Assembly: GCA_965238005.1 (NCBI GenBank)
Contig: OZ250165.1
Span: 2,720,001-2,784,000 of the forward strand
Direction of reading: 5' to 3'
Length of the DNA stretch: 64,000 nucleotides
Origin: Longimicrobiales bacterium
Lineage (GTDB): Bacteria; Gemmatimonadota; Gemmatimonadetes; Longimicrobiales; Gaopeijiaceae
Part shown: positions 2,897-60,860 of the stretch, one piece after another
How the letters are laid out: each line of letters begins with the position of its first letter
How positions within the stretch are numbered: the stretch's first letter is position 1
Position numbers and translations under genes: made by a program
The notes under the pieces: generated by a model
What the model saw: the letters and a program-made list of their open reading frames with translations, nothing else
What the model was told of the DNA's origin: nothing
Databases searched by the model: none

Positions 2897-2963
2897 CTAT
2901 AGTTAGATAATCTTACCAGACACATATGGATTGTATTGGAATCTGTGTGTAGCAGACGGTTGG
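2897..2963 (+). mobile_element. Orphan integrase-proximal end of an E1-family element; core CGGTTGG at 2957-2963, abutting a ~50-bp virB4 fragment
   Basis: ttaccagacacatatggattgtattggaat matches the E1 right end (about 14125-14155) with the same 14-nt distance to the core; the adjoining minus-strand LLGPAEASRLLSELTNR continues at 59104 as ELINRPGTIW. Confidence 0.75.
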
Positions 2964-3215
2964 TCAGCTCGGAGAGGAGCCGGGAAGCCTCGGCGGGCCC
3001 CAGCAGGTAGGTCGGCGCACTCGCTTGACGGCGGCGGCGCCACCGTAAGGGGGGGTGGATGCCCCATCTGACGGTACGCGAGGCAGTCGAATAGTTGAAG
3101 GTCAGGGAGCGATTCATCGTCTGCTCGCCAAGGCAGACATTCCCGGCATTCAAGGTCGGCTACTTCGGGGATTCGGAAACGGTGAGATCGACCGATTGGA
3201 CGGACTCGCACCGTA

Positions 3216-3320
3216 GTGAAGAAGCTCCGCCCGAAGCTCGGCGACGACGCGGCCAGACCGGGCCTACGTCTTCAACGAGCGCGGGGTCGGCTACCGGATG
3301 GCGAGGCCGGACGGGGCGTA
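3216..3320 (+). pseudogene. C-terminal fragment of an OmpR/KdpE-type winged-helix response regulator
   Basis: VKKLRPKLGDDAARP / YVFNERGVGYRM, with a frameshift. Confidence 0.6.
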
Positions 3321-3348
3321 CCGGACGGGGCGTACCGGACGGGGCGTA
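3307..3348. repeat. 14-bp tandem repeat x3 (ccggacggggcgta)
   Basis: Three perfect units read directly. Confidence 0.95.
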
Positions 3349-3590
3349 CTCCGTCACTGGCGGTCCGGGGGCCCGCACAGCCCGCCTCGCGGATCTGCGT
3401 CACCCCCGGGCCCTGGCGGCGCCCCGCCCCGGACTGCCACGCGGCGCAGGCGCCGAGACAGCTCGAGGGAATATCCGCCGAGATCGCTCTGGGATCCGTA
3501 CCGCCGGCTTCCCCCACCAAATCCTTCACCAGATACGCGTAGCGCGCCCGGGACGCAGACCTGTGACGTTCCCCGGACAGGTTGCTGGGT

Positions 3591-3905
3591 TCAGTCCCAG
3601 TCGCCTTCGGCGTCCCTCTTGAGCGCGCGGGCGAGCTCGGGATCGCCCTCACCGCGGCGGACCGAGCGCTCGACGAGGTCGACGCGGCGCCCGAGGTCGG
3701 CGAGTCCGGCAGCGCGCGCGACGCCGTAGATGGCGGCCGCAACGGCTGCAAGCCCCAGCGCCACGTGGAAAGCGATCGCAAGGCCGTGGTCCGCGAGAAT
3801 CACGGGCCAGAACGACGCGAGATACTGGAGGCGGGACCCGGCGAGGAGGAAGGCGGAGCCGACAAGTGCTGCGCTGAGCCCTACGCTGATTCTCCAGGGT
3901 TGCAT
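3591..3905 (-). CDS. Small membrane protein of the ICE backbone (paralog at 52536-52850)
   Basis: 104 aa with two hydrophobic segments; full-length conserved paralog. Confidence 0.8.
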   Translation of the reverse strand: MQPWRISVGLSAALVGSAFLLAGSRLQYLASFWPVILADHGLAIAFHVALGLAAVAAAIYGVARAAGLADLGRRVDLVERSVRRGEGDPELARALKRDAEGDWD

Positions 3906-4744
3906 GGCGGTGTGCTAGAGCTCGAGCGTGGCCGGGTCCCGCTCGGCGGGACCTCGTATGGAGCTGCGGTCGCCGTCTTGGCCCAGTGCTTGAAGCACCC
4001 GTGCGCGGCCAGCGGCTCCGTTGGCATGGACGACGAACCCGGCGTTGGCCTTGGCTCGGATGGAGGGGGCCCGGTAGTTACCCGAAGCGACCTCAATGTT
4101 GACACGTCCGGTCCGCCCGTCGGCGTCGACGCACTCGATCTGGGCGTCCGGATAGAGCACGCGGCCCCGGGCATCTATGGGTAGGCCGAGTTCGTGGGCG
4201 GCGCGGTGCCGCTCGGCGTCGGCGGCCCGCCGGCCGTCTCTCGCCCGCGCGGACTCGCTCTTGCGTGCTACGGCGCTCTTGAGCTCGCCGTCGAGCCGGA
4301 CGCGCCGGATGGCGGCGCCCTGCGTGAGCAGGCGTTGGTGCTCCAGCCGGCAAGCGCGATAAATGGCAGTGTCGTGTGCGGCTTCGGCGGGCCGGGTACG
4401 TGCGAACCCGATCTCCTGACCGGGATCCAGCCCTCGCGCGGAGGCCAGCTCGCGTGCGGCGGCGCCGCCGCTCCGTGTGAGGGTCAGGACCTTGAACGGC
4501 CTTCCCTTTGGTCCCTTGGCCGTGGACTCCTTGACGAGCCCTTCGCGGATCCAGGCGTTCACGGCCCGCCGCGTGGTGTAGGGATGCCCGCCGAAGTGAG
4601 CCTCGGCGAGATCGCGGTACGAGACGGCGCCGTAGATGCCGATGTCGGCGAGCGCCCCACGGCACCGTTCTCTGAAGGAGGTGGACCCGCGGTCCCGGCT
4701 CGCGTCGTATTCTCGGCGATGGCCGTCCCGCATGCGGTAGCTAG

Positions 4745-6345
4745 GAGTCTGCGCCGCAGAACCCTGCGGCGGCTATCTTTGGTGGTAGCGAAGGCATTGG
4801 GAAGGCTTGCGGATCACCGAGGGGGGTGAATGGGAACGACATTTCGACCGTACGATCCGGAGCAGATGTTGTTGCTGCCTCCGGATCTTCGGGAGTGGGT
4901 GTCGGAGGGTCATTTGGCGCACCATGTGAGCGACCTGGTGGACGCGGTGGAGCTGAGCGCGTTCTACGGGCGGTACCGGGGGGACGGGCGGCGCAACTCG
5001 CCGTACGACCCTCGGATGATGGTCAAGGTGCTGATCTACGCGTATGCGACGGGCACCTTCTCGTCGCGGAAGATGGCGAGGAAGCTGGAGGAGGATGTCG
5101 CGTTTCGGATGCTGGCGGCGGAGAACTTCCCGAAGCACCGGACGCTGTGCGAGTTCCGCAAGCGCCATCTCGGGGATTTCCGGGCGGTGTTTGTGGAGGT
5201 GGTGATGCTCGCGCGGGCCTTGGGGCTGGCGGGGCTTGGCAGGGTGTCGGTGGACGGGACGAAGGTTCGGGCGAACGCGAACAAGCGCAAGGCGATGAGC
5301 TACGGCCGGATGGTGACCGGGGAGCCTCGGCTGGAGGCGGAGATCCGGGGGCTGTTGGAGAGGGCCGAGGCGGTGGACGAAGCGGAAGACGAGCGCTACG
5401 GCGAGGAAGCATGCGGAGACGAGGTGCCGGAGGAGCTCAAGCGGCGCGAGGACCGGCTGGCGGCGATCCGGGAGGCGAAGGCGCGCCTGGAAGCCGAGCA
5501 GAGAGCGGCGGACGACGCACGGGGCCGCAAGCCGGGGCAGACGCGCAACCCGAAGGGCGGCAGGCCCTACAAGCGGGAGTACGGAGAGCCGGACGAGGCG
5601 GCGCAGAGCAACTTCACGGACCCTGAGAGCCGGATCATGAAGACGAGTTCGGAGGGGTTCCAGCAGTGCTACAACGCACAGACGGTCGTGGAGGGGGAGA
5701 ACCAGCTGGTGGTCGGGGCCGAGGTGACGGACAACGCGAGCGACCAGGGCCAGCTGGTGCCCATGGTCGACGCGGTGGCGCAAGCGTACGGCGAGACGCC
5801 GGCGCAGGTGCTGGCGGACACGGGCTATTGCAACGAGCGGGATCTCGAGGAACTGGAAGAGCGAGACATCGACGGGTATGTGGCGCTGGCCCGGGAGGGC
5901 AAGGCCGCCCCCACGGTTGACAAGGAGGAATATCCGGCGAAAGTCCGCATGGCGGAGAAGCTGGCGAGCGAAGATGGCCGCAGACGCTACGCACGGCGAA
6001 AGTCGCAGGCCGAGGCGCCCATCGGCTGGATCAAGGAAGTGATGGGCTTTCGACGATTCAGCTACCGGGGCCTCGAGAAGGTCCGGGCCGAGTGGACCCT
6101 CGTGTGCCTGGCACTCAATGTGAAGCGGCTGCACACCCTTCAGGCGGCATGACTGCACGAGGGTTCACCCGCATCTGCCGGCGCGAGGGCTCTCGTAGCT
6201 CTCTTGCCCCCCCAACGCATCCATTCCGCTCTCCCGATCCGTCGCAGACACAAGTCCTCAACCTCCCAATCACCCGGATCCGCCTCGCCGCGGACGGCTC
6301 GATGACCATTCGGCTCAGTCAGCTGTGCTTCTGCGGCGCAGACTC
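4745..6345 (+). mobile_element. Complete IS1182-family element with 17-bp terminal inverted repeats and a CTAG target duplication
   Basis: gagtctgcgccgcagaa (4745-4761) / ttctgcggcgcagactc (6329-6345); CTAG at 4741-4744 and 6346-6349; the empty site matches the paralog near 51685-51710. Confidence 0.95.
4830..6152 (+). CDS. IS1182-family DDE transposase
   Basis: LLLPPDLREWV..H, YDPRMMVKVLIYAY, VDGTKVRANA, NFTDPESRIM, ADTGY, GFRRFSYRG. Confidence 0.95.
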   Translation: MGTTFRPYDPEQMLLLPPDLREWVSEGHLAHHVSDLVDAVELSAFYGRYRGDGRRNSPYDPRMMVKVLIYAYATGTFSSRKMARKLEEDVAFRMLAAENFPKHRTLCEFRKRHLGDFRAVFVEVVMLARALGLAGLGRVSVDGTKVRANANKRKAMSYGRMVTGEPRLEAEIRGLLERAEAVDEAEDERYGEEACGDEVPEELKRREDRLAAIREAKARLEAEQRAADDARGRKPGQTRNPKGGRPYKREYGEPDEAAQSNFTDPESRIMKTSSEGFQQCYNAQTVVEGENQLVVGAEVTDNASDQGQLVPMVDAVAQAYGETPAQVLADTGYCNERDLEELEERDIDGYVALAREGKAAPTVDKEEYPAKVRMAEKLASEDGRRRYARRKSQAEAPIGWIKEVMGFRRFSYRGLEKVRAEWTLVCLALNVKRLHTLQAA

Positions 6346-6425
6346 CTAGCGCGGTTTTGCGGCGCGGCGGGCCGCGGGTCCGATCCGATCGTGCGGTCGA
6401 GCATCTGTCGACTCCTTCTTTGGCG

Positions 6426-7454
6426 TCAGCGGCCCGGACCGAAGTTCCGTTTGGGGAGCGGCAGCGGGAGCTCCGGCCTTGCGGCGTGCTGCGGGTCGGG
6501 AGCCCGAGTGGCGGCCACCGGAGTGGGCTCCCGCTCGGCCTGGCGCTCGCGGCTCCGGGCCAGCACGAAGTCGGAGATCTTCTGTGCGTCGGCCGCGGCG
6601 CGGCGGATCTCCCTTGGGTCTTCCTCGAGGGCAGTGACCCACCCCTCGACGTAGGCGGCCCCTCGGCTCGGGTCATGGCCGACGCCCACGCGCTCGCCGG
6701 TCATCATTGCGCTGATCTCCGCGCGGAGCTCCTCCTTCGCATAGGCCGGTGAGCCGAACCCTTCGCCGATCCCTTGGGTGAGCGTGGCGCGGTTCATCCG
6801 CTCGGGATGGCCCGTGCTGTGCCCCAGCTCGTGCAGCGCGGTCTGGTAGTAGTGGTTCGCCGAGGGGAACTGTCCCCTCTCCGGAAGCACGATCTCGTCG
6901 CGGTTCAGGTTGTAGAACGCCCGGTCGCCGGCCATGTGACGGACGGGGACCCCGCTGTCCTCGAGGACGCGTTCGGCCTGCTGGTGGACCTTCCAGAGCG
7001 GCTCGGCAGCGGGCGCGGGCCGCGCGGGCAACCCGTCGGCCTGCTCGGCGTTGAAGACGGTGTACTGCCGGACGACGGGCGCGCGCATCCGCTCGTATCG
7101 GTAGACGCGCTTGCCTTCGTTGTCCGTGACGGGCCGTCCGCGCTCGTCGTTGACGGCGATCTTCCGGTGGTCCTGGAAGGAGAGGATGCGGGTGCCCTGC
7201 TCGCCCTTCCGCACCTGTCCGCCCCGGGCTTGGATCTGGCGGTAGGTTCCCCAGCGCACGTCGCCGTAGCCGCGCTCCTGCTGGACGGCGGCAAGGTGCA
7301 GGCTGTTCCCTCCCGAGTAGGAGCGTCCGGTATCGACGTTCGCGGGAAGCACGCGCTCGCCCGGCCCCCAGGGCTTCTGCCAGGGCGCCGTGCCCTGGCG
7401 GATCTGCTCGATGACCCGGTCGGCGAACTGGCGGTGGTATTCGTCGTGTTTCAT
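6426..7454 (-). CDS. ardC: ArdC-family ssDNA-binding antirestriction protein with zincin-like C-terminal domain
   Basis: APWQKPW, YSGGN, WGTYRQIQARGGQVRKGE, VFNAEQ, HELGHSTGH, YAKEELRAEI. Confidence 0.92.
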   Translation of the reverse strand: MKHDEYHRQFADRVIEQIRQGTAPWQKPWGPGERVLPANVDTGRSYSGGNSLHLAAVQQERGYGDVRWGTYRQIQARGGQVRKGEQGTRILSFQDHRKIAVNDERGRPVTDNEGKRVYRYERMRAPVVRQYTVFNAEQADGLPARPAPAAEPLWKVHQQAERVLEDSGVPVRHMAGDRAFYNLNRDEIVLPERGQFPSANHYYQTALHELGHSTGHPERMNRATLTQGIGEGFGSPAYAKEELRAEISAMMTGERVGVGHDPSRGAAYVEGWVTALEEDPREIRRAAADAQKISDFVLARSRERQAEREPTPVAATRAPDPQHAARPELPLPLPKRNFGPGR

Positions 7455-7681
7455 CGGTCTTCCTCCTCCCGGCCGTGCGGATCCTCCGAGGCGTCCCGGA
7501 TCTCGTCTTCGGTGCCCACGTCCTCGGGGAAGAGGCCGTACTCTTCTGCCAATGAGGCCGGGACCTGGAGGGTCTCGCCCCCGTCCCGTCCGAGCTCGCG
7601 GTCGAAGTCGTCGAGCGTCTCGACGCGGACGATCTTCTCGTCGCTTTCCATGTCCTCACTCCTTTTCTGTTTGTTCTTCAT
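7451..7681 (-). CDS. Small acidic hypothetical protein
   Basis: Lies between virB11 and ardC; its stop overlaps the ardC start (ATGA). Confidence 0.6.
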   Translation of the reverse strand: MKNKQKRSEDMESDEKIVRVETLDDFDRELGRDGGETLQVPASLAEEYGLFPEDVGTEDEIRDASEDPHGREEEDR

Positions 7682-7925
7682 CGTCCTTCCTCCAGACGGG
7701 TTCGGTGAGCCAGCGGTTGGCGGCCGCCTCGTAGCCCTTCACACGGAGCGCTTCCTCGACGAACCTCCGGCCCCCTCGCCGGGTCATGTGGACAACGAGC
7801 GAGATGCCGTCGACGACGCCCCTGCAGGTCACCTCCCAGGGGAGCGCGCCTCCGGCCTGCATGGCGCAACTCGCCAGGCGCGAGAGCGCGGAGCGGGCGT
7901 TGTTGGCGTGCACGGTGGTGAGCGA
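7656..7925 (-). CDS. virB11: VirB11/CpaF-family secretion ATPase, C-terminal part (split by E1)
   Basis: SLTTVHANNARSALSRL continues NTGHGGSL of the 14169-14889 part. Confidence 0.9.
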   Translation of the reverse strand, partial: SLTTVHANNARSALSRLASCAMQAGGALPWEVTCRGVVDGISLVVHMTRRGGRRFVEEALRVKGYEAAANRWLTEPVWRKDDEEQTEKE

Positions 7926-8425
7926 GCAGCTATCAACGATGTGCTTTAATCGTCGTAACTATATGATATATAGTTAGTTACAGATGAAGTAGTTTTTGGT
8001 ACGACTCGTTTCTATCGTATGTGATCCCGTATAAGCGGCGGGCGATTACACGGGAGCGTACGGTACGTTCGCGGAACCCGTGACGGGTTCTGCCTTCGGC
8101 GTCGCGCGGGGCTGAGGAAGACCCGGCAGGTGACGACGTGGCGATCCCGAAAACTGGAATCTCGTCGCGACGGCGGGGGCGTTCGGGCACATGCTGGCGA
8201 CGCGCGATGAGGCAGTCCCGAAGCGGGCCGGACGGTATGCGTTCGGGTCAGGGGATTATGAGGCCCTTGCGGGCAAGGTGTTTTCACAGGTCTCGCGGAG
8301 AGCGGGAAGACTCGCCAGAGGCCGAGAAGCCCTCAAGATGGGTCAGAGAAAGGGAGGGGAGGGTCCCAGGCTCCTGAGGGTCCTCCCTCCAGCTAGTGCG
8401 CTTCGGATCGCCCGCCGAACTCGAT

Positions 8426-9375
8426 CTATAGCCTGAACTTCGATTTGTGGATGTGGAACCATTCGCTAACCGCGTCGATGGCTACGCCCACCTGATCTCG
8501 CAACGTGCCAGCGCCGTCGCGAAGAGCCGCATCTGCAGCTTCCTTCGTTGCTACCACCTTCTCTACGGCAGCAGCGCGCGTGTCGTCCCCGATCGCCTGC
8601 CAGATGCGCTCACCCGAATTCCACGCGTACAAGCTTCCACCCACTCCTGCGAAACCCACCAGCACCGGAGTGCCCACAGTGACACCCAGCGCGCTCGCCG
8701 TGGCAACTACGCCGACTGTCGAACCGACGACAGCCGTGGCAATACTGACCGACCGCGCGAAATCAAGCACCGCAGTCCAAGCGCCTTTCGCCCGTTTACC
8801 ACGTGCAGCGTCTCCACAGAAGCTGAGACGGGCAATTCCACCAGGGCGCCGATTGCGCCGCCCCTCGCGAGGCTGGCCAGAATTGGGCGACGTGCAGCTC
8901 CCAAGCCCATGCGGGCGTTGTGCGTGTGCATCCGCAGCTTGTCCGGGAACCCCATGTCTCTGGGACCACGTCCTTGGTTCCATTTCGGAGGCTCAAAGAC
9001 CACGTTACCGGCGCTGGCCGCCAATTCGGGATGGCGATTCACTGATCGTATATGACTCACGTCATGGACGTCGAGAAAGCCCAGTACCGCCTTCCCACCT
9101 GCCACCCGAACACCGCCGGGAATCTTCCTATAGAGATCCTCCGCAGTTACCCGGCCGACATTTGCTCTCCAATTGACCGTCGATGCCCGCTGATTCAGCC
9201 TCGTGTGAACTTTGGGCAGGTCACTCAATCTCGCGGGAATGAGTTCGGCCCAGATTTTCTCCACCCACGGAGTCATGACTGAAGCTGCTTGCGACTGCAA
9301 ACCGACATTAGCGTGAGCTGACAGAGGTCCAGCAACTGCTAGGGTGACCAGAATGATGGTCACAAAGACCCTCAT
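8426..9375 (-). pseudogene. Secreted HNH-like protein with a hydrophobic C-terminus; apparent frameshift near 8790
   Basis: Signal peptide MRVFVTIILVTLAVAGPLSAHA; DVSHIRSV..HPELA...NVVFE...NQGRG; Gly/Ala-rich TM tail in a second frame. Confidence 0.5.
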
Positions 9376-9795
9376 GGCTCTCCTCATGCGGGAAGCGGAC
9401 GACTGCCGGAGTGCGTCATCGGTACGCAACGGCCCGAGCACGGCAGACTGACCCCGTCATCCTAAACGTAAGTCCGGACGGCCACCTGCGTCCATGTCCG
9501 TTGCGCTCCCTCAGCGGCTTTCAGAGCGGCGATCACAGGTGGCCCCGAAGGCCCCACGGGGCCGTGACCCGGGGAGTTCGTCTGTTTCACGACCGCGGCA
9601 GGGCCGAGAGGAGCCCTCAGTGGCCGTCAGAGCCGACTTCTCGGCGCCGGATGACCCACAGGGGACCCGGGGATCCACTGCGGACGGTCCTCTCACACAT
9701 TGCGGAGCGCTATCGGTACGGTTTCTTATTGAGGCTGCGCCGCTGATAATCGTCAGCCTGCGTGCAAGCCATATTGCCAAGGGGTTACCCGATAG

Positions 9796-10560
9796 ATGAG
9801 TCTCGCTCAGGCAGTGGTGCAAGCAAGCCGCGCATTCGACCACGTCGCCCGCCGGACATGGTGCGTCAAACCGGCTGTGCCGATTCTTTTTTTCGGCGAC
9901 CTCGACGCGTATCGAGCTTCGCCGCTACACGTGCTGACGGTCGGACTGAATCCCTCGCGGCATGAGTTTCCGGCTGACCAGCCGTTCCTGCGCTTTCCGC
10001 TCGCAGAAGGCGGCCTTGGCGGGGAGCCATCCCGGTACCTCGAAGCAATGTCCGCCTATTTTCGAATCGCCCCCTACGACGGGTGGTTCAGCGCCTTCGA
10101 GCCGCTGCTCAACGGCATGAAGGCGAGCTACTACCACGGCGGCGCATCGACGGCGCTCCACACCGACATCTGCTCACCCGTCGCGACGAACTCGACGTGG
10201 AACGACCTCGACAAAGCTGATCGTGAAGCACTCGAGTCCGATGGCGGCCCGCTCTGGCACATGCTTCTGGAGGAGCTAGAGCCACAAATCGTGGCTCTGT
10301 CGGTGGCGAAGGCTCACCTCGAGGGCATCAAGTTCACGCCCTTGACCAGTTGGGAGGTCATCCACGCCTTCGAGCGGACAGGCAGCGGCGCCCTTCGGTC
10401 CCGACCGTACGAGGTCCACGCACGGTGGTACGACGTAGGCGGTGAACGGTCGCTGTTCATCTTCGGCAGAGCAGCTCAGAAGCCCTTTGGGCTGCTGGCC
10501 AACACCCACAAGCGCAAGGCAGGCGCGGTGGTACTGAAGGCATATCAGGATGGCCGATAA
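9796..10560 (+). CDS. Uracil-DNA-glycosylase-superfamily-like protein
   Basis: PILFFGD...VLTVGLNPS motif and later LEPQIVAL strand. Confidence 0.6.
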   Translation: MSLAQAVVQASRAFDHVARRTWCVKPAVPILFFGDLDAYRASPLHVLTVGLNPSRHEFPADQPFLRFPLAEGGLGGEPSRYLEAMSAYFRIAPYDGWFSAFEPLLNGMKASYYHGGASTALHTDICSPVATNSTWNDLDKADREALESDGGPLWHMLLEELEPQIVALSVAKAHLEGIKFTPLTSWEVIHAFERTGSGALRSRPYEVHARWYDVGGERSLFIFGRAAQKPFGLLANTHKRKAGAVVLKAYQDGR

Positions 10561-11539
10561 GCGTTGCTTCGTTCAGTTCCCGCACCCGGGGGGCGAGCAC
10601 CGACCCGACCGTAGCGGAAGTAAGCCGTGGCACACCCGGGCAAGCAGCCATGCGCGGAAGTTCATGCAGTTCCCTGGCGAGTGGATTGCGTCGGACGACA
10701 GCCCGCACCGCGGCGAATTGTGGGCGTGGGGCGAGTGGGAGCCCGAGTCGCGCCTCATTCGTGAGCTCGACCAGTCCCGTGGCAACCGGGACTATCCGCG
10801 TTACCTCTGGCAGCCGTACTACGTCCTGAGGGACAACTACCGGGGACTGCACAATACCGACCCGTTCATCTTCGGCGAACGCTTCCTCTATTCGAACTGC
10901 CGTCAAGGGGCCCACAGCCCCGGCTTGATGCGCCTCGGTGAGGGGTCCGTGATCGCCTTCGGCAGCGGTAAGCAGGGAGTCGGGGGCGAGTGGAGATGGT
11001 GGCTCGATACCGTGTTCGTGGTCGCGAATTCCGATCTCTATCCGGTATCCGAGGCAGACCGGGTGCTGAAGGACTGGACGTCTGACGTGTTCGGCATCGT
11101 GACCGGCGGACCGCTCGCCGACAACCACGAAGGCGGGTGCGCAGCGGACGTGCGGCTCAGGCTCTATCGGGGCGCGACGCCGGACGATCCGGTGGACGGA
11201 ATGTTCAGCTTCTTCCCCGCGCAGCCCGCCGGTGACGGGACGGGCTTTCCGCGACCGGGCATCGACCTGCCAAGCGAGTACTTCAACCCCGCCTGCTATA
11301 TAGCTCCCAAGGGGGTCAGCCGCGAGCACTGCCGCGATCAGCTACACTCGATCTGGATGGCCCTCGTCGCGCAGGTGCGGCAAGCCGGGCTCGTGCTCGG
11401 CACATACGCGGAAGTGCCACCACAACGGGCACACACGGGTGCTTCTAACGATCTGAACACCGACGGAAACCGTTCTCTGGGAACGACCGCTCAGGTCCCG
11501 CTCAGGGCACCGAGATGCGGCAGATGTGCACAGCCATGA
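10550..11539 (+). CDS. Hypothetical protein overlapping the UDG-like gene; possible modified-nucleotide-binding protein
   Basis: 329-aa aromatic-rich ORF with HPGGEH, WGEWEP, NTDPFIFGERFLYSNC, GSVIAFGS. Confidence 0.7.
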   Translation: MADKRCFVQFPHPGGEHRPDRSGSKPWHTRASSHARKFMQFPGEWIASDDSPHRGELWAWGEWEPESRLIRELDQSRGNRDYPRYLWQPYYVLRDNYRGLHNTDPFIFGERFLYSNCRQGAHSPGLMRLGEGSVIAFGSGKQGVGGEWRWWLDTVFVVANSDLYPVSEADRVLKDWTSDVFGIVTGGPLADNHEGGCAADVRLRLYRGATPDDPVDGMFSFFPAQPAGDGTGFPRPGIDLPSEYFNPACYIAPKGVSREHCRDQLHSIWMALVAQVRQAGLVLGTYAEVPPQRAHTGASNDLNTDGNRSLGTTAQVPLRAPRCGRCAQP

Positions 11540-11629
11540 TCAGCTCCTCCTCACAGCCTCTGCCACGTATGGGCAGGTGGAGGACTTGATGATCCAGGCT
11601 TCCGAGCGTCGGGCGACGAGTTCGTTTAA

Positions 11630-11940
11630 TGTACGAGAGCCAGCATACCCCTTGGGGCCACGCTTCGCGGGTCCCGGGCAGGGGCTGGCGAGGGGTAGCT
11701 CCGCCCCCCTTCGAACCCCCGAGGCCCGCGCTCCTGCGGAGTGCTTTGCCCCCCTCCCCCTTGCCGGTGCGCTGATGGCTGAGCGCCGCACGTCACCGCC
11801 GCCGCCCGCGTATCGCCAGCTGAGCTCACCGACTGGCGGGCCACGGCAACGGTCGCTGGCGTGCCTCTCTCGGAGCTGATGCGGCAAGCCATGGCACGCG
11901 CACGGACGTGGGCCGCCCCGACATCGGCGGAGCGAGTGAT
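11630..11940 (+). pseudogene. mobC: Degenerate oriT-like module followed by a frameshifted mobC remnant
   Basis: MAERRT/VTAAARVSPAELTDWRATA..GVPLSELMRQAMARARTW matches the mobC starting at 50260. Confidence 0.75.
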
Positions 11941-11967
11941 ATTGAACCCACGCTACCATTGGGAGGC

Positions 11968-12606
11968 ATGCCGATGACGGGCACCGTGGTCGGATACGAC
12001 CCTGGTGGCAACCGCAAGCATGGACTTGCGTGGGCGACGGTTGAAGACGGGAATATCGTCAACGTGACTACGAAGACCCTCTGCAACGTTGAGGAGGTGG
12101 TTGCATTGATTTTCGATATCGAAACACCCCTTGGGCTCGGTATCGACACCCTCACCTGCTGGGGCACTGGTCGCAGTGGCTGGCGTCCGGCGGATCGCTG
12201 GCTTCGACGGCGCTATCCCGACGTGCAGAACAGCGTCCAAGCGCCAAACTCCCTTTACGGGGCCATGAGCGTCAGCGGAATGGCATTGCTGGTCGCCGTG
12301 CGACAGGCCTTCCCCGACATCTTCGTTACCGAAACCCACCCCAAGGTGCTGTACCACGCGCAGTGCAACGAACGCTACGACTACAACGGCCCGAACACAT
12401 CCGTCATGAACAAGCACCTGAGTCGATTGCTCGCCGTCGATGTCGCACTTCAGAACGAGCACGAGTGGGACTCTGCCATCTCGATTCTCGCGGCCGTCCG
12501 TGGACTTCATGGGTTATGGCAGCGTGACCTGCACGCTCTGCCGACCGATTCCGACGAACGTTTGGTGCAGCCGTGCGGCAGGACGGCCTACATGTGGCCC
12601 GAATAG
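11968..12606 (+). CDS. DUF429-like RNase H-fold predicted nuclease
   Basis: VVGYDPGG, LGIDT, WRPADRWL, ETHPK, HEWDSAIS; GGAGG RBS. Confidence 0.75.
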   Translation: MPMTGTVVGYDPGGNRKHGLAWATVEDGNIVNVTTKTLCNVEEVVALIFDIETPLGLGIDTLTCWGTGRSGWRPADRWLRRRYPDVQNSVQAPNSLYGAMSVSGMALLVAVRQAFPDIFVTETHPKVLYHAQCNERYDYNGPNTSVMNKHLSRLLAVDVALQNEHEWDSAISILAAVRGLHGLWQRDLHALPTDSDERLVQPCGRTAYMWPE

Positions 12607-12679
12607 AATGTCGGGCCGGTCATCCGGCTCCCAACCCCACTAGCCGGCCCTCGGACTCGCGAGGCTTTTGGAGCGGATC

Positions 12680-12790
12680 GCTCGCGAACTCCGCCGGAGC
12701 GCGCGCCTCCAGGGGATCGAAGGGGCGGAGCCCTCGCCAGCCCCAATGTACCCACATTGGGTAGGCTGGCTTAAGCACCTTAGTCTCCGC
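12680..12790 (+). other. oriT-like site directly downstream of the E1 integrase
   Basis: Hairpin cccaatgt/acattggg (12742-12761) followed by CTGGCTTA (12766-12773), the ColE1-type nic consensus. Confidence 0.7.
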
Positions 12791-12818
12791 CTGAGGTGCC
12801 GCGACGGTGGGCTGCAAC

Positions 12819-14006
12819 CTATGGCTTGCGACTGTCGCCGGTGAGGTACGCAGCCCAAAGCTCCATCAGGACGCGCCTGCGCTCGAACAGGTCGGAACGA
12901 GCGTAGGCGGCCTCCGCCTTGTTGCGGACCACGTGCGCCAAGGCCGCCTCCATGACCGCATGGGGGGTGTCCGTGCATTCGGCCGCCCAGTCCCTGAAGC
13001 TGGACCGGAAGCCGTGCGGCACGGCCGCGATGCCCAGTCCTCGAAGCAGCCTGGGGAGGTTGGTGTCGGAAAACACGCGGCCCTCCGGCGACGGGAACAC
13101 CAGACCGCCACCACCGCCGAGCGTCCGCGCCTCCTCGAGGATCACCATGGCGCGCCCGGACAGCGGCACCCTGTGGGGGCGCTGGGCCTTCATGCGCTCA
13201 CCGGGGATGGTCCACTCGGCCGTCTCGAGATTGATGTCATCCCAGCTTGCCAAGCGAACCTCACTGGAGCGGCACGCCGTCAGCACCAGGAACTCGAAGG
13301 CGAGCCTTGTCGTGAGGGTCGACGCCGAAGTCCGGGCCGCCTCGATCGCGCCCGCGACCTCCGCGTGAGGCAACGCGCGCATGTGCCGGACTACGACGCG
13401 CTGTCGGCCGAGCGCTTGACCGAGCACATCGCCAGCGGGGTTGTCCGGCCGAAGCTCCATCGCCACCGCCCACTTCATCACCGCCCCGATGCGCTGGCGC
13501 ACCCGCCGGGCGGTCACCTGCTTGTCGTGCCAGATCGGTGTCAGAACCGCCAGAACGTCGGCTGTCGTTATCTCGCCGACCGGTCGATTGCCCAGCTGTG
13601 GGAACGCATAGACGCGCAGGCTGGTGACCCAGTCCTTCGCATGCTTGGCGGTACGCCAGCCCGGCCGCAGCTGTTCCAGAACACGGGCGGCCGCCTCGGC
13701 GAACGTGGGCATGTCCCGGATCTTGTGCCGCTCGGTACGCGGATCGCCGCCCGAGCGCGCGATCTTGCGGTTCATGAATGCCTTCTCGCGCGCCTCGGCC
13801 AGCGATACCAGCTGGTAGCCCCCGAGCCCCATCGTGCGGGGTCGGCCCTGGATCCGTAGACGCTGCTCCCATCGGCGCGCGCCGGATCGGTCCACGCGCA
13901 GATAGAGGCCGTTCCCGTCACAGTAGTATCCGGGCTTGGCACTGCGCACGAAGGCCGCGCTGAGTGCGTTGTGCGGGCGTCTCCCTCGGTGTTTGGGCAA
14001 ATCCAT
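12819..14006 (-). CDS. int: P4-like tyrosine recombinase/integrase of E1
   Basis: Arm domain YCDGNGLYL; LTACRSSE, MKAQRPHRVPL, HGFRSSF, LAH, AY. Confidence 0.95.
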   Translation of the reverse strand: MDLPKHRGRRPHNALSAAFVRSAKPGYYCDGNGLYLRVDRSGARRWEQRLRIQGRPRTMGLGGYQLVSLAEAREKAFMNRKIARSGGDPRTERHKIRDMPTFAEAAARVLEQLRPGWRTAKHAKDWVTSLRVYAFPQLGNRPVGEITTADVLAVLTPIWHDKQVTARRVRQRIGAVMKWAVAMELRPDNPAGDVLGQALGRQRVVVRHMRALPHAEVAGAIEAARTSASTLTTRLAFEFLVLTACRSSEVRLASWDDINLETAEWTIPGERMKAQRPHRVPLSGRAMVILEEARTLGGGGGLVFPSPEGRVFSDTNLPRLLRGLGIAAVPHGFRSSFRDWAAECTDTPHAVMEAALAHVVRNKAEAAYARSDLFERRRVLMELWAAYLTGDSRKP

Positions 14007-14168
14007 TTCCTATATCCCGTATAAAGTATCGTATGACATGTACGGGAACATAGCGGACATACAGCGACTCTGTAACCCGGAGTGTAGTTATATAACTAAC
14101 TGCTATACTGAGAGTTATATAACCTTACCGGACACATATGGATTGTATTGGAATTTATGTACTGGAGA

Positions 14169-14889
14169 TGAGCGATCCGCCGTGGCCAGTGTTCAGCGCT
14201 TGGAGGAGATCGGCGGCCTCGCCGCCCCTGACCTCTCCGACGACGATGTGGTCGGGCCGGTGGCGGAGCGCGTGCCGGACCAGGTCGCGGATCGACACGG
14301 GCGCGTCGGAGCCGACGGCTCCGGCCTCGAAGCGCAGGCAGTTCGCGCGCTCGATCCTGAGCTCGAGCGTGTCCTCGATGGCGACGATCCTCTCCTCCTC
14401 GGGGAGCAGCTCGATCAGTGCGTTGAGGAGTGTGGTCTTGCCCGAGCCGGTGCCTCCGGAGACCAGGATGTTGCGCCGCGAAGTGAGAGTGTCGCGGGCG
14501 GCGCGGAACACCGTCTCTGGCAAGGCGCCCTGGCCAACGAGGTCTTCGGCCGAGAACGCGCGGCCCCCGAACCGGCGGATGGTCATAGCCACGTGGGGGC
14601 TTGCGGGCGGCGTGCATATGGCGACCCGGGAGCCGTCCTCGAGCCGCGCGTCTAGGACGGGCCGTGTGGCCGGATCGAGCCCGAGCGGCCTGGCGATGTG
14701 GATGGCCGCCCGGTAGAGTGCCGCGGCGGTGAGCGCCGGTGCCTCGATGGGCTCGAGCTCTCCGCCGCGCTCGACCCAGACGTTGCCGGGGCCGTTGATC
14801 ATCAGCTCGGAGACCTCCGGATCCTCGAGCACGGCCTCGAGGCCGGGCAGAAACGGCTTCAGATGCCCGATCCCGCTCGCGCGCTTCAT
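14169..14889 (-). CDS. virB11: VirB11/CpaF-family ATPase, N-terminal part (split by E1)
   Basis: GGTGSGKTT Walker A, IEDTLE, RHRPDHIVVGEVRG, NTGHGGS; ATGA overlap with the virD4 stop. Confidence 0.92.
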
Positions 14890-16168
14890 AGCCGGCCCTC
14901 CTCGCGGAGCCGCCAGTAGCCCGTGCTCCTCGGCAGGTAGTGGGGCTGCAGGTAGACCCGCCGGGCCGGAAGGGACTTCGTGCCGTCGTAGGGCAGGCAG
15001 ATCGCCTGATAGTTGGCGAGGAGCGTGAAGTCCCTCGGCGTGAACACCGGCTCCCGTGCCTGCCGGAACGACTTGCTCGCGCCGATCGTGCCCCGTCCGC
15101 CTCCGGCGCGTCCCGATAGCAGCGAGAACTCCGGCCTGCCCGTCGTCTCGGTGAACGTGTAGGACGGCTGCGTCTTCATGACGCTGCCGCACATCTCCGA
15201 TGCGATCCGGGCCGAGGACTCGTCGCTCAAGGACAGGAAGATCCGGGTGCGGAGCGTCTGGACCAGGGTGCGCCACGCGTCCGTGCCCGACAGCACGGAG
15301 CGGAGCGAGGAGATCGACTGCGTCGCGACGATCGGGATGCAGCGGCACTGCCGCGTCAAGGCGAACGCCTTCTCGTCGCCAGCGGGGTCGTCCTGGCCCA
15401 CGGTCGCGAACGCTTGGTACTCGTCGCAGATGAACACGGCGGGCCGGAGGTAGCGGCCGGGCCGGCGGGCGGCCTCGGCGGGCCGCCGGAGCAGCGCCTG
15501 CATCCAGGCGTTCTTGAGCAGCACGCCGATGGCGCGTCCGAGCGCCGGGTTCGCGCCGGCGGGCATGTTGAGGGCCAGGACCCTGCCCCCTTCGATCAGC
15601 TCGGCGAGCGGCGGCAGGCGGCGGCGAAGGCCCGGCATGGGCCGGACGGCCGCCGCATCCTCGTCCGGTGTCTCCTTATATAGATGTGTGGGCGCATCCG
15701 GATCCGGAGGCGGCGGACAGAACACGCTCGCGACCTGCGGCTGGTCGAAGAGCGAGAGGAAGACGGAGATGCCCTCGACGATCGAGGTGCGGAGCTTGGC
15801 ATCGAGCGCCATCCAATCGTTCAGGTACCAGCGCTCGATCGCCTCGACCTGGTCCTTGAGTTCGCTGCCTGCGCCGCTCTCGCCTTTCTCGGTCTCGAAC
15901 GGGATCTCGAACTCGGCGAGCCGATCCCGGAGGACCGGGTCGAGCCGGCACGTCACCGTGTCCTCACCGGAGGTATATATCCAGACCCAGTCATTCAGCG
16001 CTTCCGGATGGCCGATCATGTCGTCGTGGGAGATGACGACGCGCGCCGGGCACGCCTCAGCCACCAGGTCCTTGGCCTCGCGGATTCTCTCGGCGAATAG
16101 TTCCGCGTCGATCGTGCAGCGGTAGATGTCCTGCAGCGTGACCCAGCCCCCCGGCAGGAGCCGGTGCA
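14886..16168 (-). CDS. virD4: VirD4/TraD-like coupling protein, C-terminal part (split by E2)
   Basis: FICDEYQ Walker B, IVATQSISSL, SARIASEMCG. Confidence 0.88.
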
Positions 16169-52526: not shown

Positions 52527-52535
52527 CACACCCCC

Positions 52536-53592: not shown

Positions 53593-54073
53593 TTATTGCC
53601 TAAGCTCAACCCGACCGCCTGAGCCCTCCGCCGCGCCTGCCGGGGCGCGGCCATCCGGCGCCCCCGGTCCGTCCGACCGAACCCGACACGCCCCTTCCGC
53701 CTCGCGGCCCGCGCGCGCGTTCCTCGCCGTCTGCCTCCTCGCCGCCGCGGCTCTGCTCGGGAGCCCCGGCACCGCGCAAGCGCAGACCGAGCTCAGGAGT
53801 GGGTGGTCCGCCAGGCCGGAGGGCGACCGCGCGACAGAAAGCTCGCAGCAGTACGCGGCACCCCGCCTGCCGTGGGCGGAACTCCCGGCATGGATCCGGG
53901 GAGCCAGAGCGAGGCAAAAGCCCCTCGAGTAACCCAAGCCACCGCCCGCCGCATGGAGAACGCGACACCGAAGCGAAGCGGAGCGCCGCGCCGAGGCAGA
54001 AGAAACCAACCACGAGCGGCGCATCCACTGGCGCCGGCCGTGGAAGCAAGCACAAGTACGACGGAGGAAAGAG

Positions 54074-57000: not shown

Positions 57001-57677
57001 TGGACGGTCCGGCAGGCCGACTGGCTGGGACCGAAGCGGTGGTGACGCGTGTGCGGACAGCGCTCGAGGCCTCGAGGGGCTACGTCTTCGGACACGGCAT
57101 CGCGCTCCGGCCGAGCTTCGAGGTCGGGCTCAGGCGCGACGGCGGGGACGCCGAGACGGGCGTGGGCGCCGACATCGCCGCGAGCCTGATCGCATCGGAC
57201 CCGCTGACCGGACTGTCGGTCGACGTGCGGGTGCGGACGCTGCTCGTGCATCAGGACGAAGGGTTCAGGGAACGGGGCGTGTCGGTGTCGTTCAGCTACG
57301 ACCCGACGCCACAGACGCCGCTGGGCTTCACGGCGCGGGTCGCGCCCTCGTGGGGCGGTCAGGCGATGAGCGGTGCCGACGCGCTCTGGGGCCGCGATAC
57401 GATGGAGGGGCTCGGCGCGGCAGGCCCGGGATCGGGCGACCGCATCGACGCCGAGCTCGGCTATGCGCTGCCGGTCGGGAGTCGGCTGGTGGGGACCCCG
57501 AGGTTCGGCGTCACGACTTCCGAGTACGGGCGCGGCTACCGGCTGGGCTACAGCCTGGCTGTCGTGCAGGGTGGCGCCATGAGCTTCCAGTTCGGCCTCG
57601 ACGCCCAGCGCCGCGAGAGCCTGGGCCGGGGAGACGCCGACCACAGCCTGGTGGGCCGACTCACAGTGGGCTGGTAG
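54074..57677 (+). CDS. Large surface protein with Calx-beta and Ig-like domains and an autotransporter-like C-terminal beta-barrel
   Basis: Signal ending PAAAQ; two Calx-beta motifs (SISDATATEG..GTLTF..GET); two FE(N/D)VP.EHDGS domains; LARFGR helix, beta-rich tail ending in W. Confidence 0.88.
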
Positions 57678-58050: not shown

Positions 58051-58240
58051 ATGGAGACGCTGACGAGGCACTTCGAATCGCGAGTGGGTGCATCCCTCGA
58101 GCGCACGGGCCTGAAGCCGTCGACGTTCGGCCTGCAGGCGGTGGGCGATCTCAACCCGGTGCGTCAGCTCCGTCCTGGCCGATCCCCGAGACTGGCGATG
58201 GCCTGCCAGGTCCCCGTGTTCATCGAAGCCTGCCGCCGGG
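58051..58240 (+). pseudogene. Small Cro-like HTH protein, probably degenerate
   Basis: LERTGLKPSTFGLQAVGD..VRQLR.GRSPRL; upstream of alpA. Confidence 0.5.
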
Positions 58241-58315
58241 CCCATGTGGCCCCTGTTCCCTCCCCCGGGGCAACGCGCCCCGGAATTCTTCACCGAACAG
58301 AACGGAGGCAGACCG

Positions 58316-58543
58316 ATGACCAGAGCAATGGAACAGAGCATGGACGCGCCCGCGCGCGTCCTGAGGTTACCTCGAGTGCAGGCCCGCACCGGGCTGGCGC
58401 GGAGCACGATCTACGTGCGGGTGGCCGACGGGAGCTTTCCCCAACCGATCCGGCTAGGCGCGCGCGCCGTCGGCTGGATCGAGTCCGAAGTGGATGCGTG
58501 GATCCGAGAACAGATCGCGGCGAGCCGTGGCCGCGAGGAGTAA
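58316..58543 (+). CDS. alpA: AlpA-family regulator / probable recombination directionality factor
   Basis: LRLPRVQARTGLARSTIY...FPQPIRLG.RAVGW.ESEV; GGAGG RBS. Confidence 0.93.
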   Translation: MTRAMEQSMDAPARVLRLPRVQARTGLARSTIYVRVADGSFPQPIRLGARAVGWIESEVDAWIREQIAASRGREE

Positions 58544-58849
58544 TCTGAGACGATAATCATCTCACAGTTCACCATAAGAGAGGGCAGGGGCCATCGACAA
58601 ACTGCCCTCCGGCAAGCTTCGCTCCTTCGCCGTTTCGCCTACAGCCTGCGTCGACCAAGTGCCTATGCCGATCAGGGTGACACGGCGCTCAGCGAGGTTG
58701 GTTCGCTATCGTTTTTCCCCTAACTCGCCCTTCTGGGCGGACACTCCGTCGCTTGTAGGCCCCGATTGTACAGAGATGGTAATGACCTGACACTCGGCCC
58801 TCGCCGGAGCTGCGTCTAGGCTGCCTTCTTGTTGGAGTCCTCCTTGCTG

Positions 58850-59117
58850 GCCTTTGCGGGCGACGAGAATACAATCTTCGGATCGCCTCATCGTCATCCG
58901 CGTGGTCTCGCTCAGCCCCGCGCGACGCCCGCGACGCCCAAGGGAGCACCCGTCACGGGTTCCGCGAACGTACCGTAAGCTCCCGTGTAATCGCCCGCCA
59001 ATTATACGGGATCACATACGATAGAAACGAGTCGGACCAGAAACTACTGCATCCATAACTAACTACAGATCATATACTTATGACGACATAGGGACAGGAT
59101 AGGGAGCTGATCAACCG
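58850..59117 (-). mobile_element. E1-family distal end abutting the 5' truncation of virB4 (core at 59111-59117)
   Basis: Reverse complement aligns in register with 7926 onward (tagttagtta, gactcgtttctatcgtatgtgatcccgtata, cccgtgacggg). Confidence 0.88.
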
Positions 59118-60551
59118 TCCGGGCACGATCTGGGACGGCGCGACGGGGAGCGGCATGAACTGGCGGCTCGCGCTTTCGGAGCTCGAGGCGGAGCGCTCCC
59201 ACCTGCGCCTCGACGGCGAGCCCGTGATCCTGTACTCGCTTCTGTCCCCGCCAGGGCAGGCCTACGCGAACCTGCTCCGGGAGCTCTACTGCCTGGACGC
59301 GGTGATGACGGTCTCGCTCGAGTGGCGGCCCTGGGCGGTGGAAGCGGCGAGGCGCCGGATCCGTGGTGCGCAGCGGCACTACTTCGCGCGCCGCTACTCG
59401 ATGATGGCGCACGTGCAGGAGACGGAGGGCACGGCCGCCGCGATGGTCGACTCGGCCGCGGCCACGGAGTCGGACCGTCTGGGCGAGGCGCTGGTCGAGC
59501 TGGAAGCGGACGGAGTGAGCTACGGCGAGGCCACGCTGACCGTGGCGCTCCACGGCGAGCTTGGGAGCATCGAACGCGTGGACGGCGACCTGCGTCGGCT
59601 GTTCGCCGCCCACGACGCGAAAGTGATCCGGGAGGGCTACGGCCAGCTGCCGGCCTGGTTCTCGCGGCTGCCGGCCCAACCGCGTGGGCGGCAGGTGCGG
59701 AAGGTGTTCGTCTCGGCCGGAGTGGCGGCGTGCCTGGCGCCGCTGTTCGGGCCGCCCAAGGGCCGGGCTAAGAGCAAACACCTTGGCCGCGAGGCGCTCG
59801 CGGTCTTGGAGACCCCGTGGCGCACGGCGTACCACTACGACCTGTTCGCCGGCGACGTGGGCCACACGCTGATGCTCGGCGCGACCGGCTCGGGCAAGAG
59901 CTTCACGCTGAACTTCCTCCTGGTCGAAGCTCTCAGGTACGACCCACGCGTCCTGATCCTGGACCTGGGCGGCTCGTACCGCTGGCTGACCCGGTTCCTC
60001 GGGGGCCGCTACCTGGAGCTGTCGCCCGGCGAGGCGGAGCCCACGCTCCGGCTGCAGCCGTTCGCGCTGCCGGCGGGCACGCGGACGTTCCAGTTCCTGA
60101 CGGGCTGGGTGCTCCGGCTACTGAAGCTCGGCGGTTGGGAGGCGAGCGGGGCGGATACGAGCGAGATCCGGGCCCGGATCGAGGACCTCTACGCGTTCGA
60201 GCCGGAGCGGCGGACGCTGAGCGTCTTGGCAAGCTCGCTTCCGTCCGCGACGTGGCCGGCCTGGAGCCGCTGGACCCAAGGCGGCGCCTGGGGCGCGTAC
60301 TTCGATAACCCGGCCGTCGGAGCGCCGGATCTCGAGTTCGCCGACTGGCAGGTGATCGATCTCGCCGGCGCGGTCGAGCATCCGGATCTCTGCGACGCGG
60401 CGCTCTCCTACCTGCTCGAGCGGATGCGCTTGGAGGTGGAGGACCCGTCCGAGGCGGCGCGGCTGAAGCTGATGGTCGTGGACGAAGCCTGGCGCTACCT
60501 GCAGGACCCGGCCGTACTGAGCTACCTGGCCGAGGCGGCGAAGACGTGGCG
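59111..60551 (+). pseudogene. virB4: VirB4-like ATPase, central fragment bounded on both sides by element ends
   Basis: GHTLMLGATGSGKS Walker A, ILDLGGSY, VVDEAW Walker B; breaks at AKTWR. Confidence 0.88.
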
Positions 60552-60860
60552 TCAGTTATAGACGACGTTCTTACATCGTCGTAACTCTATGACATATAGT
60601 TAGTTATGGGTGTCTTAGTTTCTGGTCCGACTCGTTTATATCGTATGTGATCCCGTATATTATTAGGGGGATTACACGGGACCATGCGGTGCGTTCACGG
60701 ACCCCGTGACGGGTTCTTCCTTGGGCGTCGCGGGCGTCGCGGGGGGGGTTGAGAAAGACCCGGCAGATGACGGCGTGGCGATCCCGAAGATCGAATTTTC
60801 GTCGCCACGTCGCGGGCGTTCGGGTACGTACTGGGCCATCCGCGAGGGCGATTCGCTCAC
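60545..60860 (+). mobile_element. Left end of another E1-family element (E5) inserted in virB4; predicted core CGTGGCG at 60545-60551; the element continues past the window
   Basis: Aligns with the E1 left end, with the same 30-nt register from the junction to tcgtcg. Confidence 0.85.

Follow-up and report, generated by a model that had tools for sequence, protein, structure and literature searches.

Islands with a P4-type integrase, shared attachment arms and differing crossover cores in type IV secretion ATPase genes of Longimicrobiales conjugative elements

How can the ends of one family of mobile elements keep conserved terminal arms and yet border three unrelated 7-mers, all of them lying inside ATPase genes of type IV secretion systems (T4SS)? 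The question is raised by a stretch of 64,000 nucleotides (the window, in what follows) from a Longimicrobiales bacterium, the source genome of which (G000) measures 4.84 Mb in a single contig and has its relatives, in the public species collection, among metagenome-assembled genomes (MAGs) titled Longimicrobiales bacterium of the phylum Gemmatimonadota. Between 2.9 and 60.9 kb the window consists of nested and rearranged mobile elements, namely pieces of conjugative elements (ArdC, a VirB11/TrbB-like ATPase, the coupling protein and VirB4 among them), several P4-type integrases, restriction-modification (R-M) and other defence genes, and a high-copy insertion sequence (IS). The three ends are the integrase-distal arms of the attachment sites (attP) of islands of 3.9-8 kb that carry a P4-type tyrosine integrase, and we think it likely that the family is made up of lambda/P4-type islands that have split into core-retargeted sub-lineages, each with a conjugation-ATPase target of its own. 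The observations that carry this reading are the anatomy of the islands, their direct repeats, the association of core with integrase clade, the behaviour at off-target sites and the restorable reading frames of the interrupted genes. The features of the window on which the argument depends are the following.

7656..7925, minus strand: C-terminal part of a VirB11/TrbB-like ATPase gene, ending in the left TGAGCGA copy (7919-7925)
7926..14175, plus strand: island E1, type A, 6250 bp including the right core copy (14169-14175), with a 7-bp direct repeat at both ends
7926..8220, plus strand: distal attP arm of E1, carrying ATCGTAT (+95 from the core), CCCGTATA (+107) and inverted TACACGGG (+128)
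9796..12606, plus strand: cargo of E1, three open reading frames (ORFs; 9796-10560, 10550-11539 and 11908-12606)
12819..14006, minus strand: integrase of E1, type A (Arm-DNA-bind_3, Phage_int_M and Phage_integrase domains)
14007..14168, plus strand: integrase-side attP arm of E1, with motifs at -153, -141 and -130, ending in ...ggaga
14176..15348, minus strand: N-terminal part of the VirB11/TrbB-like ATPase gene split by E1
58840..59110, minus strand: distal attP arm of E2, type B, the arm alone remaining here
59111..60551, plus strand: middle fragment of virB4 (aa 277-760), bounded by tcaaccg (59111-59117) and CGTGGCG (60545-60551)
60552..64000 within the window, plus strand: island E3, type C, 5102 bp, reaching window-equivalent 65653, with the distal arm at 60552-60840 and the integrase beyond the window
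60923-63328, minus strand: cargo of E3, an fn3/CARDB repeat protein

The sequence-only reading had proposed that the three ends, with first bases 7926 (plus), 59110 (minus) and 60552 (plus), align in one register, and both the alignment and its coordinates proved exact. In an alignment with seven further ends (10 in total) they are mutually about 80-90% alike across about 290 nt, and a repeat search within the window gave 82% between 7927-8106 and 60553-60732, 85% between 7924-8106 and 58930-59112 on the complementary strand, and 83% between 58916-59095 and 60567-60746, a likeness that on these alignments is far above chance. The register is identical in a listing of 22 distal ends. The adjoining 7-mers are TGAGCGA (7919-7925, followed by gcagct from 7926), CGGTTGA (present as its reverse complement tcaaccg at 59111-59117 and preceded by agctga, which ends at 59110) and CGTGGCG (60545-60551, followed by tcagtt from 60552), and all three lie, as had been claimed, within T4SS ATPase genes, the first in a VirB11/TrbB-like gene and the other two at separate points of a VirB4 gene. 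A second and unrelated kind of end, of about 170 nt, adjoins the integrase gene and terminates in ...AGA followed by the same 7-mer. The trinucleotide aga was found at all 19 integrase-side junctions; the pattern used to locate them itself required AGA, and no row failed. The consensus (t/g)cagYt suggested for the distal side stands for types A (GCAGCT, 7/7) and C (TCAGTT, 2/2) but not for type B, where one end in 13 reads TCAGCT and the remaining type B ends listed read TCTACT, TCAGTC or TCTGCT. The far end of the third island (called E5 earlier, E3 here) repeats CGTGGCG at window-equivalent 65647-65653 (G000 2785647-2785653) and is followed by VirB4 aa 756-889, so that the check proposed with the sequence-only reading succeeded. 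Two other views of the ends were abandoned. A transposon with terminal inverted repeats spanning 7926 to 59110 (a 183-nt inverted match) does not fit, since every end is paired with one of another kind and the 7-mers beside the two differ; and a structured RNA, an IS110 bridge RNA or an omega RNA as the meaning of the hairpin-rich arm was dropped after the integrase-side partner ends and the direct repeats emerged.

Comparison of five complete elements (E1 and E3, together with L041, L046 and L053 from other genomes) showed that they have in common no more than the two arms, distal and integrase-side, and the integrase gene together with about 100 nt that follow it. Both arms carry CCCGTATA, ATCGTAT and inverted TRYACGGG, and these motifs stand at -152/-140/-129 and +95/+107/+128 from the core (within 1 nt) in five of five elements and in all three core types. 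Such a layout is as expected for the arm-type sites of a heterobivalent integrase, and the repeats are probably sites for its N-terminal domain. The E1 integrase matches the Pfam families Arm-DNA-bind_3 (1.8e-17), Phage_int_M (1.1e-27) and Phage_integrase (9.5e-13); its family matches solved P4/CP4-type domains in its arm-binding and core-binding parts (PDB 2khv and 3jtz) and the NCBIfam domain PRK09692 below the cut-off of the latter. The strings HGFRSSFR and AAYARSD are kept in all 8 aligned integrases and may hold the catalytic Arg-His-Arg-Tyr residues. With integrase and att arms, the islands possess an integration/excision module of their own, as do integrative and mobilizable elements (IMEs); domain scans of the ORFs of the five elements found no relaxase, coupling-protein or replication domain. 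The cargo varies even between islands occupying the same site in different genomes, which speaks for turnover: it is an outer-membrane beta-barrel protein in L041, a TonB-dependent receptor with an IS110 in L046, and an IS3 alone in L053. The three cargo ORFs of E1 had no match in Pfam, NCBIfam, PADLOC or PHROGs, and the ideas that E1 is a phage satellite (no primase, capsid or PHROG match in its cargo) or a carrier of defence genes (no PADLOC match) were discarded. The E3 cargo gene contains five tandem 276-nt repeats at 61461-62864, 98-100% identical except the last (71%).

The 7-mers stand as direct repeats at both ends of E1, of E3 and of E2, the halves of which are now separated. The repeat is TGAGCGA, exactly 7 bp, in E1, AGACGTGGCG (10 bp) in E3, 16 bp in E2, GACGGTTGATC in L041 and CGGTTGATC in L046, and left and right 7-mers are identical in all five complete elements except L053, where there is one mismatch. 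Because the attL/attR identity of type A is exactly 7 bp, this type sets the outer limits of the overlap; the identity blocks of types B and C are 9-16 bp. A fourth core, CGGATCA (type D), was seen at a single junction, within the 3' portion of another gene for a P4-type integrase (L060/L068, G002 contig 13, about 196.8-198.3 kb), next to an integrase 83-87% identical to those of all other types; the distal end of this element was not found. The earlier proposal of one family with conserved arms, differing crossover cores and hence retargeting in its past is thus borne out, with four cores seen and not three.

A degenerate arm pattern recovered another 18 distal ends, spread over 9 MAG records of Longimicrobiales, and with the 4 of G000 these make 22 (G000 has 4 distal and 5 integrase-side ends in all); the 29-base degenerate arm pattern had no match in the metagenome collection. 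An integrase protein search of 401 genomes of the order, with 4 candidates scored per genome, found close integrases (at least 82% identity) in 8 genomes of one family, giving 19 integrase-side junctions. The two sets overlap in the elements sampled and come from about 10 related genomes in all. Their ends are distributed as follows.

Type A distal ends (n = 7): TGAGCGA, then GCAGCTATCRACGATG; 6 in the virB11-like site, 1 in an ABC-F ATPase gene
Type B distal ends (n = 13): CGGTTGA (once CGGTCGA), with different core-proximal 25-30 nt; 11 in virB4 site 2, 2 elsewhere
Type C distal ends (n = 2): CGTGGCG; 1 in virB4 site 3, 1 elsewhere
Type A integrase-side junctions (n = 4): 3 in virB11, 1 (GGGGCGA) elsewhere
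Type B integrase-side junctions (n = 13): 9 in virB4, 4 off-target or variant
Type C integrase-side junction (n = 1)
CGGATCA integrase-side junction (n = 1): inside another integrase gene

Core type agrees with the type of the distal arm in all 22 ends and, allowing for one- or two-base variants, with the integrase clade at all 19 junctions. On the integrase tree the core labels need four changes, the minimum possible, with clade supports of 100/99 for B and 94/96 for A, and integrase identity is 94-98% within types and 82-87% between them. The sequence-only reading had named two findings that would speak against it, namely that each core segregates with a distinct and distant integrase or that most targets lie outside conjugation genes. 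Each core does have its distinct clade, but at 82-87% identity the clades are close and not distant; and most targets are conjugation genes: judged by their flanks, 18 of the 22 distal ends lie in T4SS ATPase genes, and conjugation genes are the target at 13 of the 19 integrase-side junctions.

The interrupted genes are a VirB11/TrbB-type ATPase (NCBIfam TIGR02788, TIGR02782 and TIGR03819; Pfam T2SSE) and a VirB4/TrbE-type ATPase (TIGR00929), of which aa 277-760 are 97.5% identical to an intact paralog. The primary targets are virB11-like for TGAGCGA, virB4 at about aa 279 for CGGTTGA and virB4 at about aa 758 for CGTGGCG, all of them in strongly conserved coding stretches: site 1 comprises the codons for GHGGSLTTVHAN of the VirB11-like ATPase, presumably the motif called the 'His box', and site 3 those for KTWRKKN of VirB4. 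Empty primary sites are present in G000 paralogs (TGAGCGA in 4 of 7 virB11-like genes, CGGTTGA in 1 of 2 intact virB4 genes and CGTGGCG in 2 of 2). The attP offers no replacement sequence, since hand translation of virB11 into the integrase-side arm of E1 reaches a stop after 4 residues. In-silico removal of the islands yields an open virB11-like frame of 589 aa, 91.7% identical over 504 aa to its paralog, and an open virB4 frame of 824 aa, 97.3% identical without gaps to the intact copy, and the interruptions are therefore reversible in principle. Two islands sit in one virB4, and its neighbours, the virB11 and coupling-protein genes, have one apiece. The occupant of the coupling-protein (TraG-D_C/TrwB) gene, on the same element, is unrelated to the others: this 14.4-kb island (16169-30579) is bounded by the 9-bp direct repeat GCCGGTGCA at 16160-16168 and 30580-30588, and its own P4-type integrase (29028-30410) is 31% identical to that of E1. 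All three T4SS ATPase classes have thus been struck in this region, by two integrase lineages. The cargo of the 14.4-kb island includes a type III restriction-modification system (23206-27398) and an AbiU2 HEPN protein (18384-19118), and its empty site is found at G000 about 871445-871453.

Insertions in other genes tell what the integrases would recognise. Off-target insertions retain the element's own core, and the orthologous unoccupied sites in G000 resemble the primary ones beyond it: GGTGA-TGAGCGA-TCTCCC against the primary GGTGG-TGAGCGA-TCCGCC for type A, and CTGA-CGGTCGA-TCAGGG against CGGA-CGGTTGA-TCAGCT for type B. Genome counts of the 7-mers, in the order TGAGCGA, CGGTTGA and CGTGGCG, are 1096, 607 and 2501, and the 14-mer GGTGNTGAGCGATC occurs three times in the genome, two of these occurrences being used sites. 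The likeness of off-target sites beyond the core and the rarity of the 14-mer indicate that recognition spans about 13-15 bp, which agrees with the 21-bp attB of HK022 and its free but matching 7-bp overlap (PMC7736782). As an observation apart, a 45-nt REP-like repeat, of which about 70 dispersed copies occur in G000, adjoins the off-target insertion site of L046 (type B; left flank, G002 contig 14).

In the mechanism that we propose, the attP of an island would consist of two long arms, with fixed-position repeats that are probably arm-type integrase sites, around a short core, the central 7 bp of which would be the strand-exchange overlap. The arm repeats would bind the N-terminal domain of the integrase, and integration would need the same 7 bp and a few flanking bases in the target, with the 7 bp being left as a direct repeat. 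At least three and perhaps four sub-lineages would each have their own attP core, a slightly different integrase, in which substitutions in the catalytic domain would set the core specificity, and their own primary target. Insertion would cut the ATPase gene and exact excision, of which the islands may still be capable, would restore it. The distribution of differences between the integrases is compatible with such a division of labour: types A and B are separated by 43 fixed differences, 35 of them in the catalytic domain (21.9% of its positions) and 2 in the 80 positions of the arm-binding domain, with those of the catalytic domain clustering at about residues 214-235, 245-275, 311-323 and 341-352. 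In the single type C integrase, residues up to 267 resemble type B and residues 269-359 type A; the type D integrase is also mosaic, and the type C distal arm is A-like in the 40 nt nearest to the core. For the integrase-side arm of type C, a count by eye over its final 32 nt gave 3 versus 4 differences, and assignment of this arm as B-like was dropped as not decisive. With one sequence for each type, these mosaics hint that new specificities arise when sister elements exchange parts. As for the preference for conjugation genes, our preferred reading is that it is kept by selection and not by a special targeting factor, because an island without transfer genes would spread only inside or through a conjugative element; under selection, the motif-coding stretches of the ATPases would be the most stable landing sites.

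Several observations weigh against this account of integration and retargeting. The data are drawn entirely from about 10 related genomes belonging to one family, and since islands can be passed on together with their conjugative element, the counts do not represent independent events. The islands have no conserved excisionase gene, the integrase being the sole ORF common to the five complete elements; an element-encoded excisionase, which belongs to a heterobivalent-integrase module though it is no strict requirement of the family, is thus missing from them, and AlpA genes were seen only in the surrounding conjugative element. Neither an excised circle nor a restored site was seen in the contigs of four public runs, which give no evidence either way on current excision. 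Four integrase-side junctions have one or two core mismatches (GGGGCGA, CGATTGA, CGGTGGA and, in a remnant, CGGTTGG), reflecting either some tolerance of heterology or later mutation. Finally, the half-sites flanking the core are too weakly alike between the three targets to point to the specificity residues, and types C and D are each represented by one integrase.

Among the alternatives, the one that fares best concerns present activity: the islands of the window may be inert relics, old insertions inherited with decaying conjugative elements, with nothing moving today. We regard this as a real possibility, if a doubtful one. The region is indeed heavily rearranged, as E2 illustrates. Its integrase half, which carries core CGGTTGA, lies 29.5 kb to the right of the distal arm, at G000 2807316-2808661 (about 87316-88661 in window-equivalent numbering), and is oriented oppositely; the arm abuts VirB4 aa 277-760 and the integrase half abuts VirB4 aa 1-281. 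A simple single inversion was rejected as the origin of this split, there being no clean inverted-repeat pair at the presumed breakpoints. Moreover, the AlpA gene beside the E2 arm (58244-58543) resembles the gene lying upstream of virB2 in the integrative and conjugative element (ICE), which indicates that further deletions or exchanges occurred at E2. A decayed end is present at G000 660440-660757, and at the left of the window one arm stands without an integrase.

2850..2952, plus strand: integrase-side attP arm remnant, type B, no integrase left, left-truncated beside a group II intron maturase fragment
2953..3017, minus strand: core-like CGGTTGG (2953-2959) and a short diverged remnant of the virB4 N-terminal flank, 81% over 63 nt to the virB4 site-2 flank

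The maturase (GIIM) fragment occupies 2429-2770, directly left of the arm remnant, and may have replaced the integrase of that island. The presence of two islands in one virB4 and of one each in the neighbouring virB11 and coupling-protein genes also favours inert relics, and so does the failure to find an excision joint in the four public runs. These runs hold the island body at low depth, in contigs identical to the window, and the joints 7916->14173/14174 that they contain were rejected as excision of E1: the letters at the site are others (TGTCAA, CGTCAA, CGTCAGT) and the shorter side has 21 letters, and from these letters the joints across E1 are read as paralogous or foreign empty virB11 genes. 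On the other hand, E1, E3 and the E2 half have full-length integrase genes, open and without stops, the direct repeats are exact, the interrupted genes are restorable and 92-97% like intact paralogs, and the cargo differs at the same site across genomes.

A bolder extension of our reading, to which we give limited credence and which we consider on the whole unlikely, is that the islands are obligate lodgers of ICEs and reversible breakers of T4SS ATPase genes. Induction of the transfer operon of the ICE would then let its AlpA act as the missing excisionase, the islands would leave, the ATPase genes would be whole again, and island and ICE would travel jointly; new specificities would come from modular exchange among sister integrases and their attP halves. 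The transfer operon of the host element has the order AlpA - TrbC/VirB2 pilin - VirB3 - VirB4 (L062:5619-7400 = G000 2808619-2810400), and that the AlpA encoded there drives excision of the islands is speculation. If true, the islands would be a conjugative counterpart of helper-embedded phage satellites, and a series of retargeted integrases 13-18% apart could reveal the residues of core specificity.

The sequence-only reading had also raised the possibility that a target factor, such as relaxosome-bound or single-stranded DNA, directs the integrase. In its general form (relaxosome-bound, single-stranded or transferring DNA, or a T4SS-associated protein, guiding the integrase, with the cores being secondary) this would account for three unrelated sites that all lie within T4SS ATPase genes, and for the placement of the 14.4-kb island by an unrelated integrase (31% identity) in the coupling-protein gene of the same element; an analogous tropism of integrases of helper-embedded phage-inducible chromosomal islands (PICIs) is called unexplained by its authors (PMC10111431). 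Such a factor is nevertheless not required. Off-target insertions in ABC-F and oxidoreductase-like genes follow a sequence likeness to the primary sites over 13-14 bp, the targets are the most conserved motif-coding stretches, as expected under plain sequence recognition, the orientation of the gene relative to the island at site 3 differs from that at sites 1 and 2, and no candidate factor gene is common to the islands. We therefore consider guidance by a target factor improbable.

The other explanation entertained at the outset, a tyrosine transposon like Tn916 or CTnDOT that makes staggered cuts in non-homologous coupling sequences, so that the 7-mers need not match, is largely refuted and now very improbable. 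It was suggested by the different 7-mers beside related ends within one window, and the few junctions with one or two mismatched core bases agree with it, but the left and right 7-mers are the same in complete elements (L053 excepted), the 7-mer is constant within a clade across genomes and even at off-target sites, the core is already present at the empty off-target sites, and the integrase is a P4-type three-domain protein served by long arms. Least credible of all is transposition with a 7-bp target-site duplication, in which the 7-mers would be copied from the target and not borne by the element, since beyond the exact 7-bp repeats that flank E1 it meets elements that share no transposase but only an integrase and arms, insertions in unrelated genes that still show the clade's own 7-mer, identity blocks of 9-16 bp in types B and C, and ends that are not inverted repeats.

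Placing homology-dependent integration by retargeted sub-lineages beside known systems, we find its general kind to be familiar. Classical P4/CP4-57-type island integrases, which have the same domain architecture as the E1 integrase, target tRNA or tmRNA genes and restore them by means of a replacement sequence, whereas the present islands cut protein-coding genes of another mobile element. Lambda and HK022 share their arm-type sites and differ in their core-type sites, much as the arm system is kept and the core specificity altered here; they are two phages with one site each, unlike the radiation seen here within one functional class of target genes. For HK022 Int the 7-bp overlap is described as arbitrary provided that it is identical in both partners, with an attB of 21 bp, and the free but matching overlap and the relatedness of the heterobivalent integrases (70% identical there, 82-87% here) are points of likeness (PMC7736782). 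The closest parallel is given by helper-embedded PICIs (Tommasini, Mageeney and Williams 2023, PMC10111431). Their integrase clade lies near P4/PICI, and every subclade of it has as its target one of 14 sites, all within late genes of prophages; the attP lacks a replacement sequence, so that the target gene stays cut until excision, a doubled motif flanks the attP centre at set distances to either side, off-target events occur, and the tropism is left unexplained. The differences are that the helper there is a prophage with late-gene targets and that those islands carry alpA, replication and capsid-related genes, whereas here the host element is conjugative, the targets are T4SS ATPases (3 sites, perhaps 4), the phylum is Gemmatimonadota and the arm motif is CCCGTATA/ATCGTAT. 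Among Firmicutes, Guedon et al. 2017 (PMC5704250) describe IMEs inserted in genes of Tn5252-superfamily ICEs (traG, encoding VirD4, at sites 1 and 2, Maff2 and SNF2) and IMEs with tyrosine integrases in oriT. Internal sites in conserved conjugation genes, several islands per ICE, two sites in one ATPase gene and the proposed logic of gene-restoring excision followed by riding the ICE are shared with our islands; those IMEs rely for the most part on serine recombinases and bring along genes for replication or mobilisation, in contrast to the P4-type tyrosine integrase and the VirB4/VirB11 targets, rather than the coupling protein, found here.

In searches the coverage of which excluded subscription journals, no paper turned up that describes virB4 or virB11 as the site of an island, and among the matches listed for Gemmatimonadota none dealt with elements of this sort. 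What is new is a radiation of P4-type integrases embedded in Longimicrobiales conjugative elements with three to four retargeted cores. It amounts to a compact natural experiment in the retargeting of heterobivalent tyrosine integrases, tractable for swaps and for the design of integrases for new sites; it extends the phage-satellite pattern, in which an integrase clade repeatedly chooses helper genes, to conjugative elements and to the little-studied Gemmatimonadota; and the islands bear on the silencing, regulation or exploitation of conjugative elements.

Examination of the remainder of the window and genome yielded further observations. G000 has about 10 paralogous modules of ArdC, VirB11-like ATPase, coupling protein and integrase against 3 copies of virB4, and pieces of such modules lie in the window at 3572-7925, 14176-16168, 30580-32752 and 50765-52906. 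It also has about 20 P4-type integrase paralogs at about 60% identity, and its wealth of ICE/IME-like elements is unusual. The IS at 4739-6350, whose transposase (4830-6152) is of the DDE_Tnp_1/DUF772 kind, has more than 50 genome copies at about 99.8% identity. A defence-rich stretch (32772-46369) holds GmrSD (32772-33914), a Gp49-like toxin pair (37157-37815), a type I R-M system with a fused M-S subunit (37843-42903), a RiboL-PSP HEPN protein (42907-43644) and DUF5131 (44357-45217). Lastly, a perfect pentanucleotide microsatellite, (AGCCG/GCCGA)n with about 27 units at 53460-53594, lies upstream of a 1292-aa Calx-beta gene (53799-57677) and is a possible phase-variation tract.

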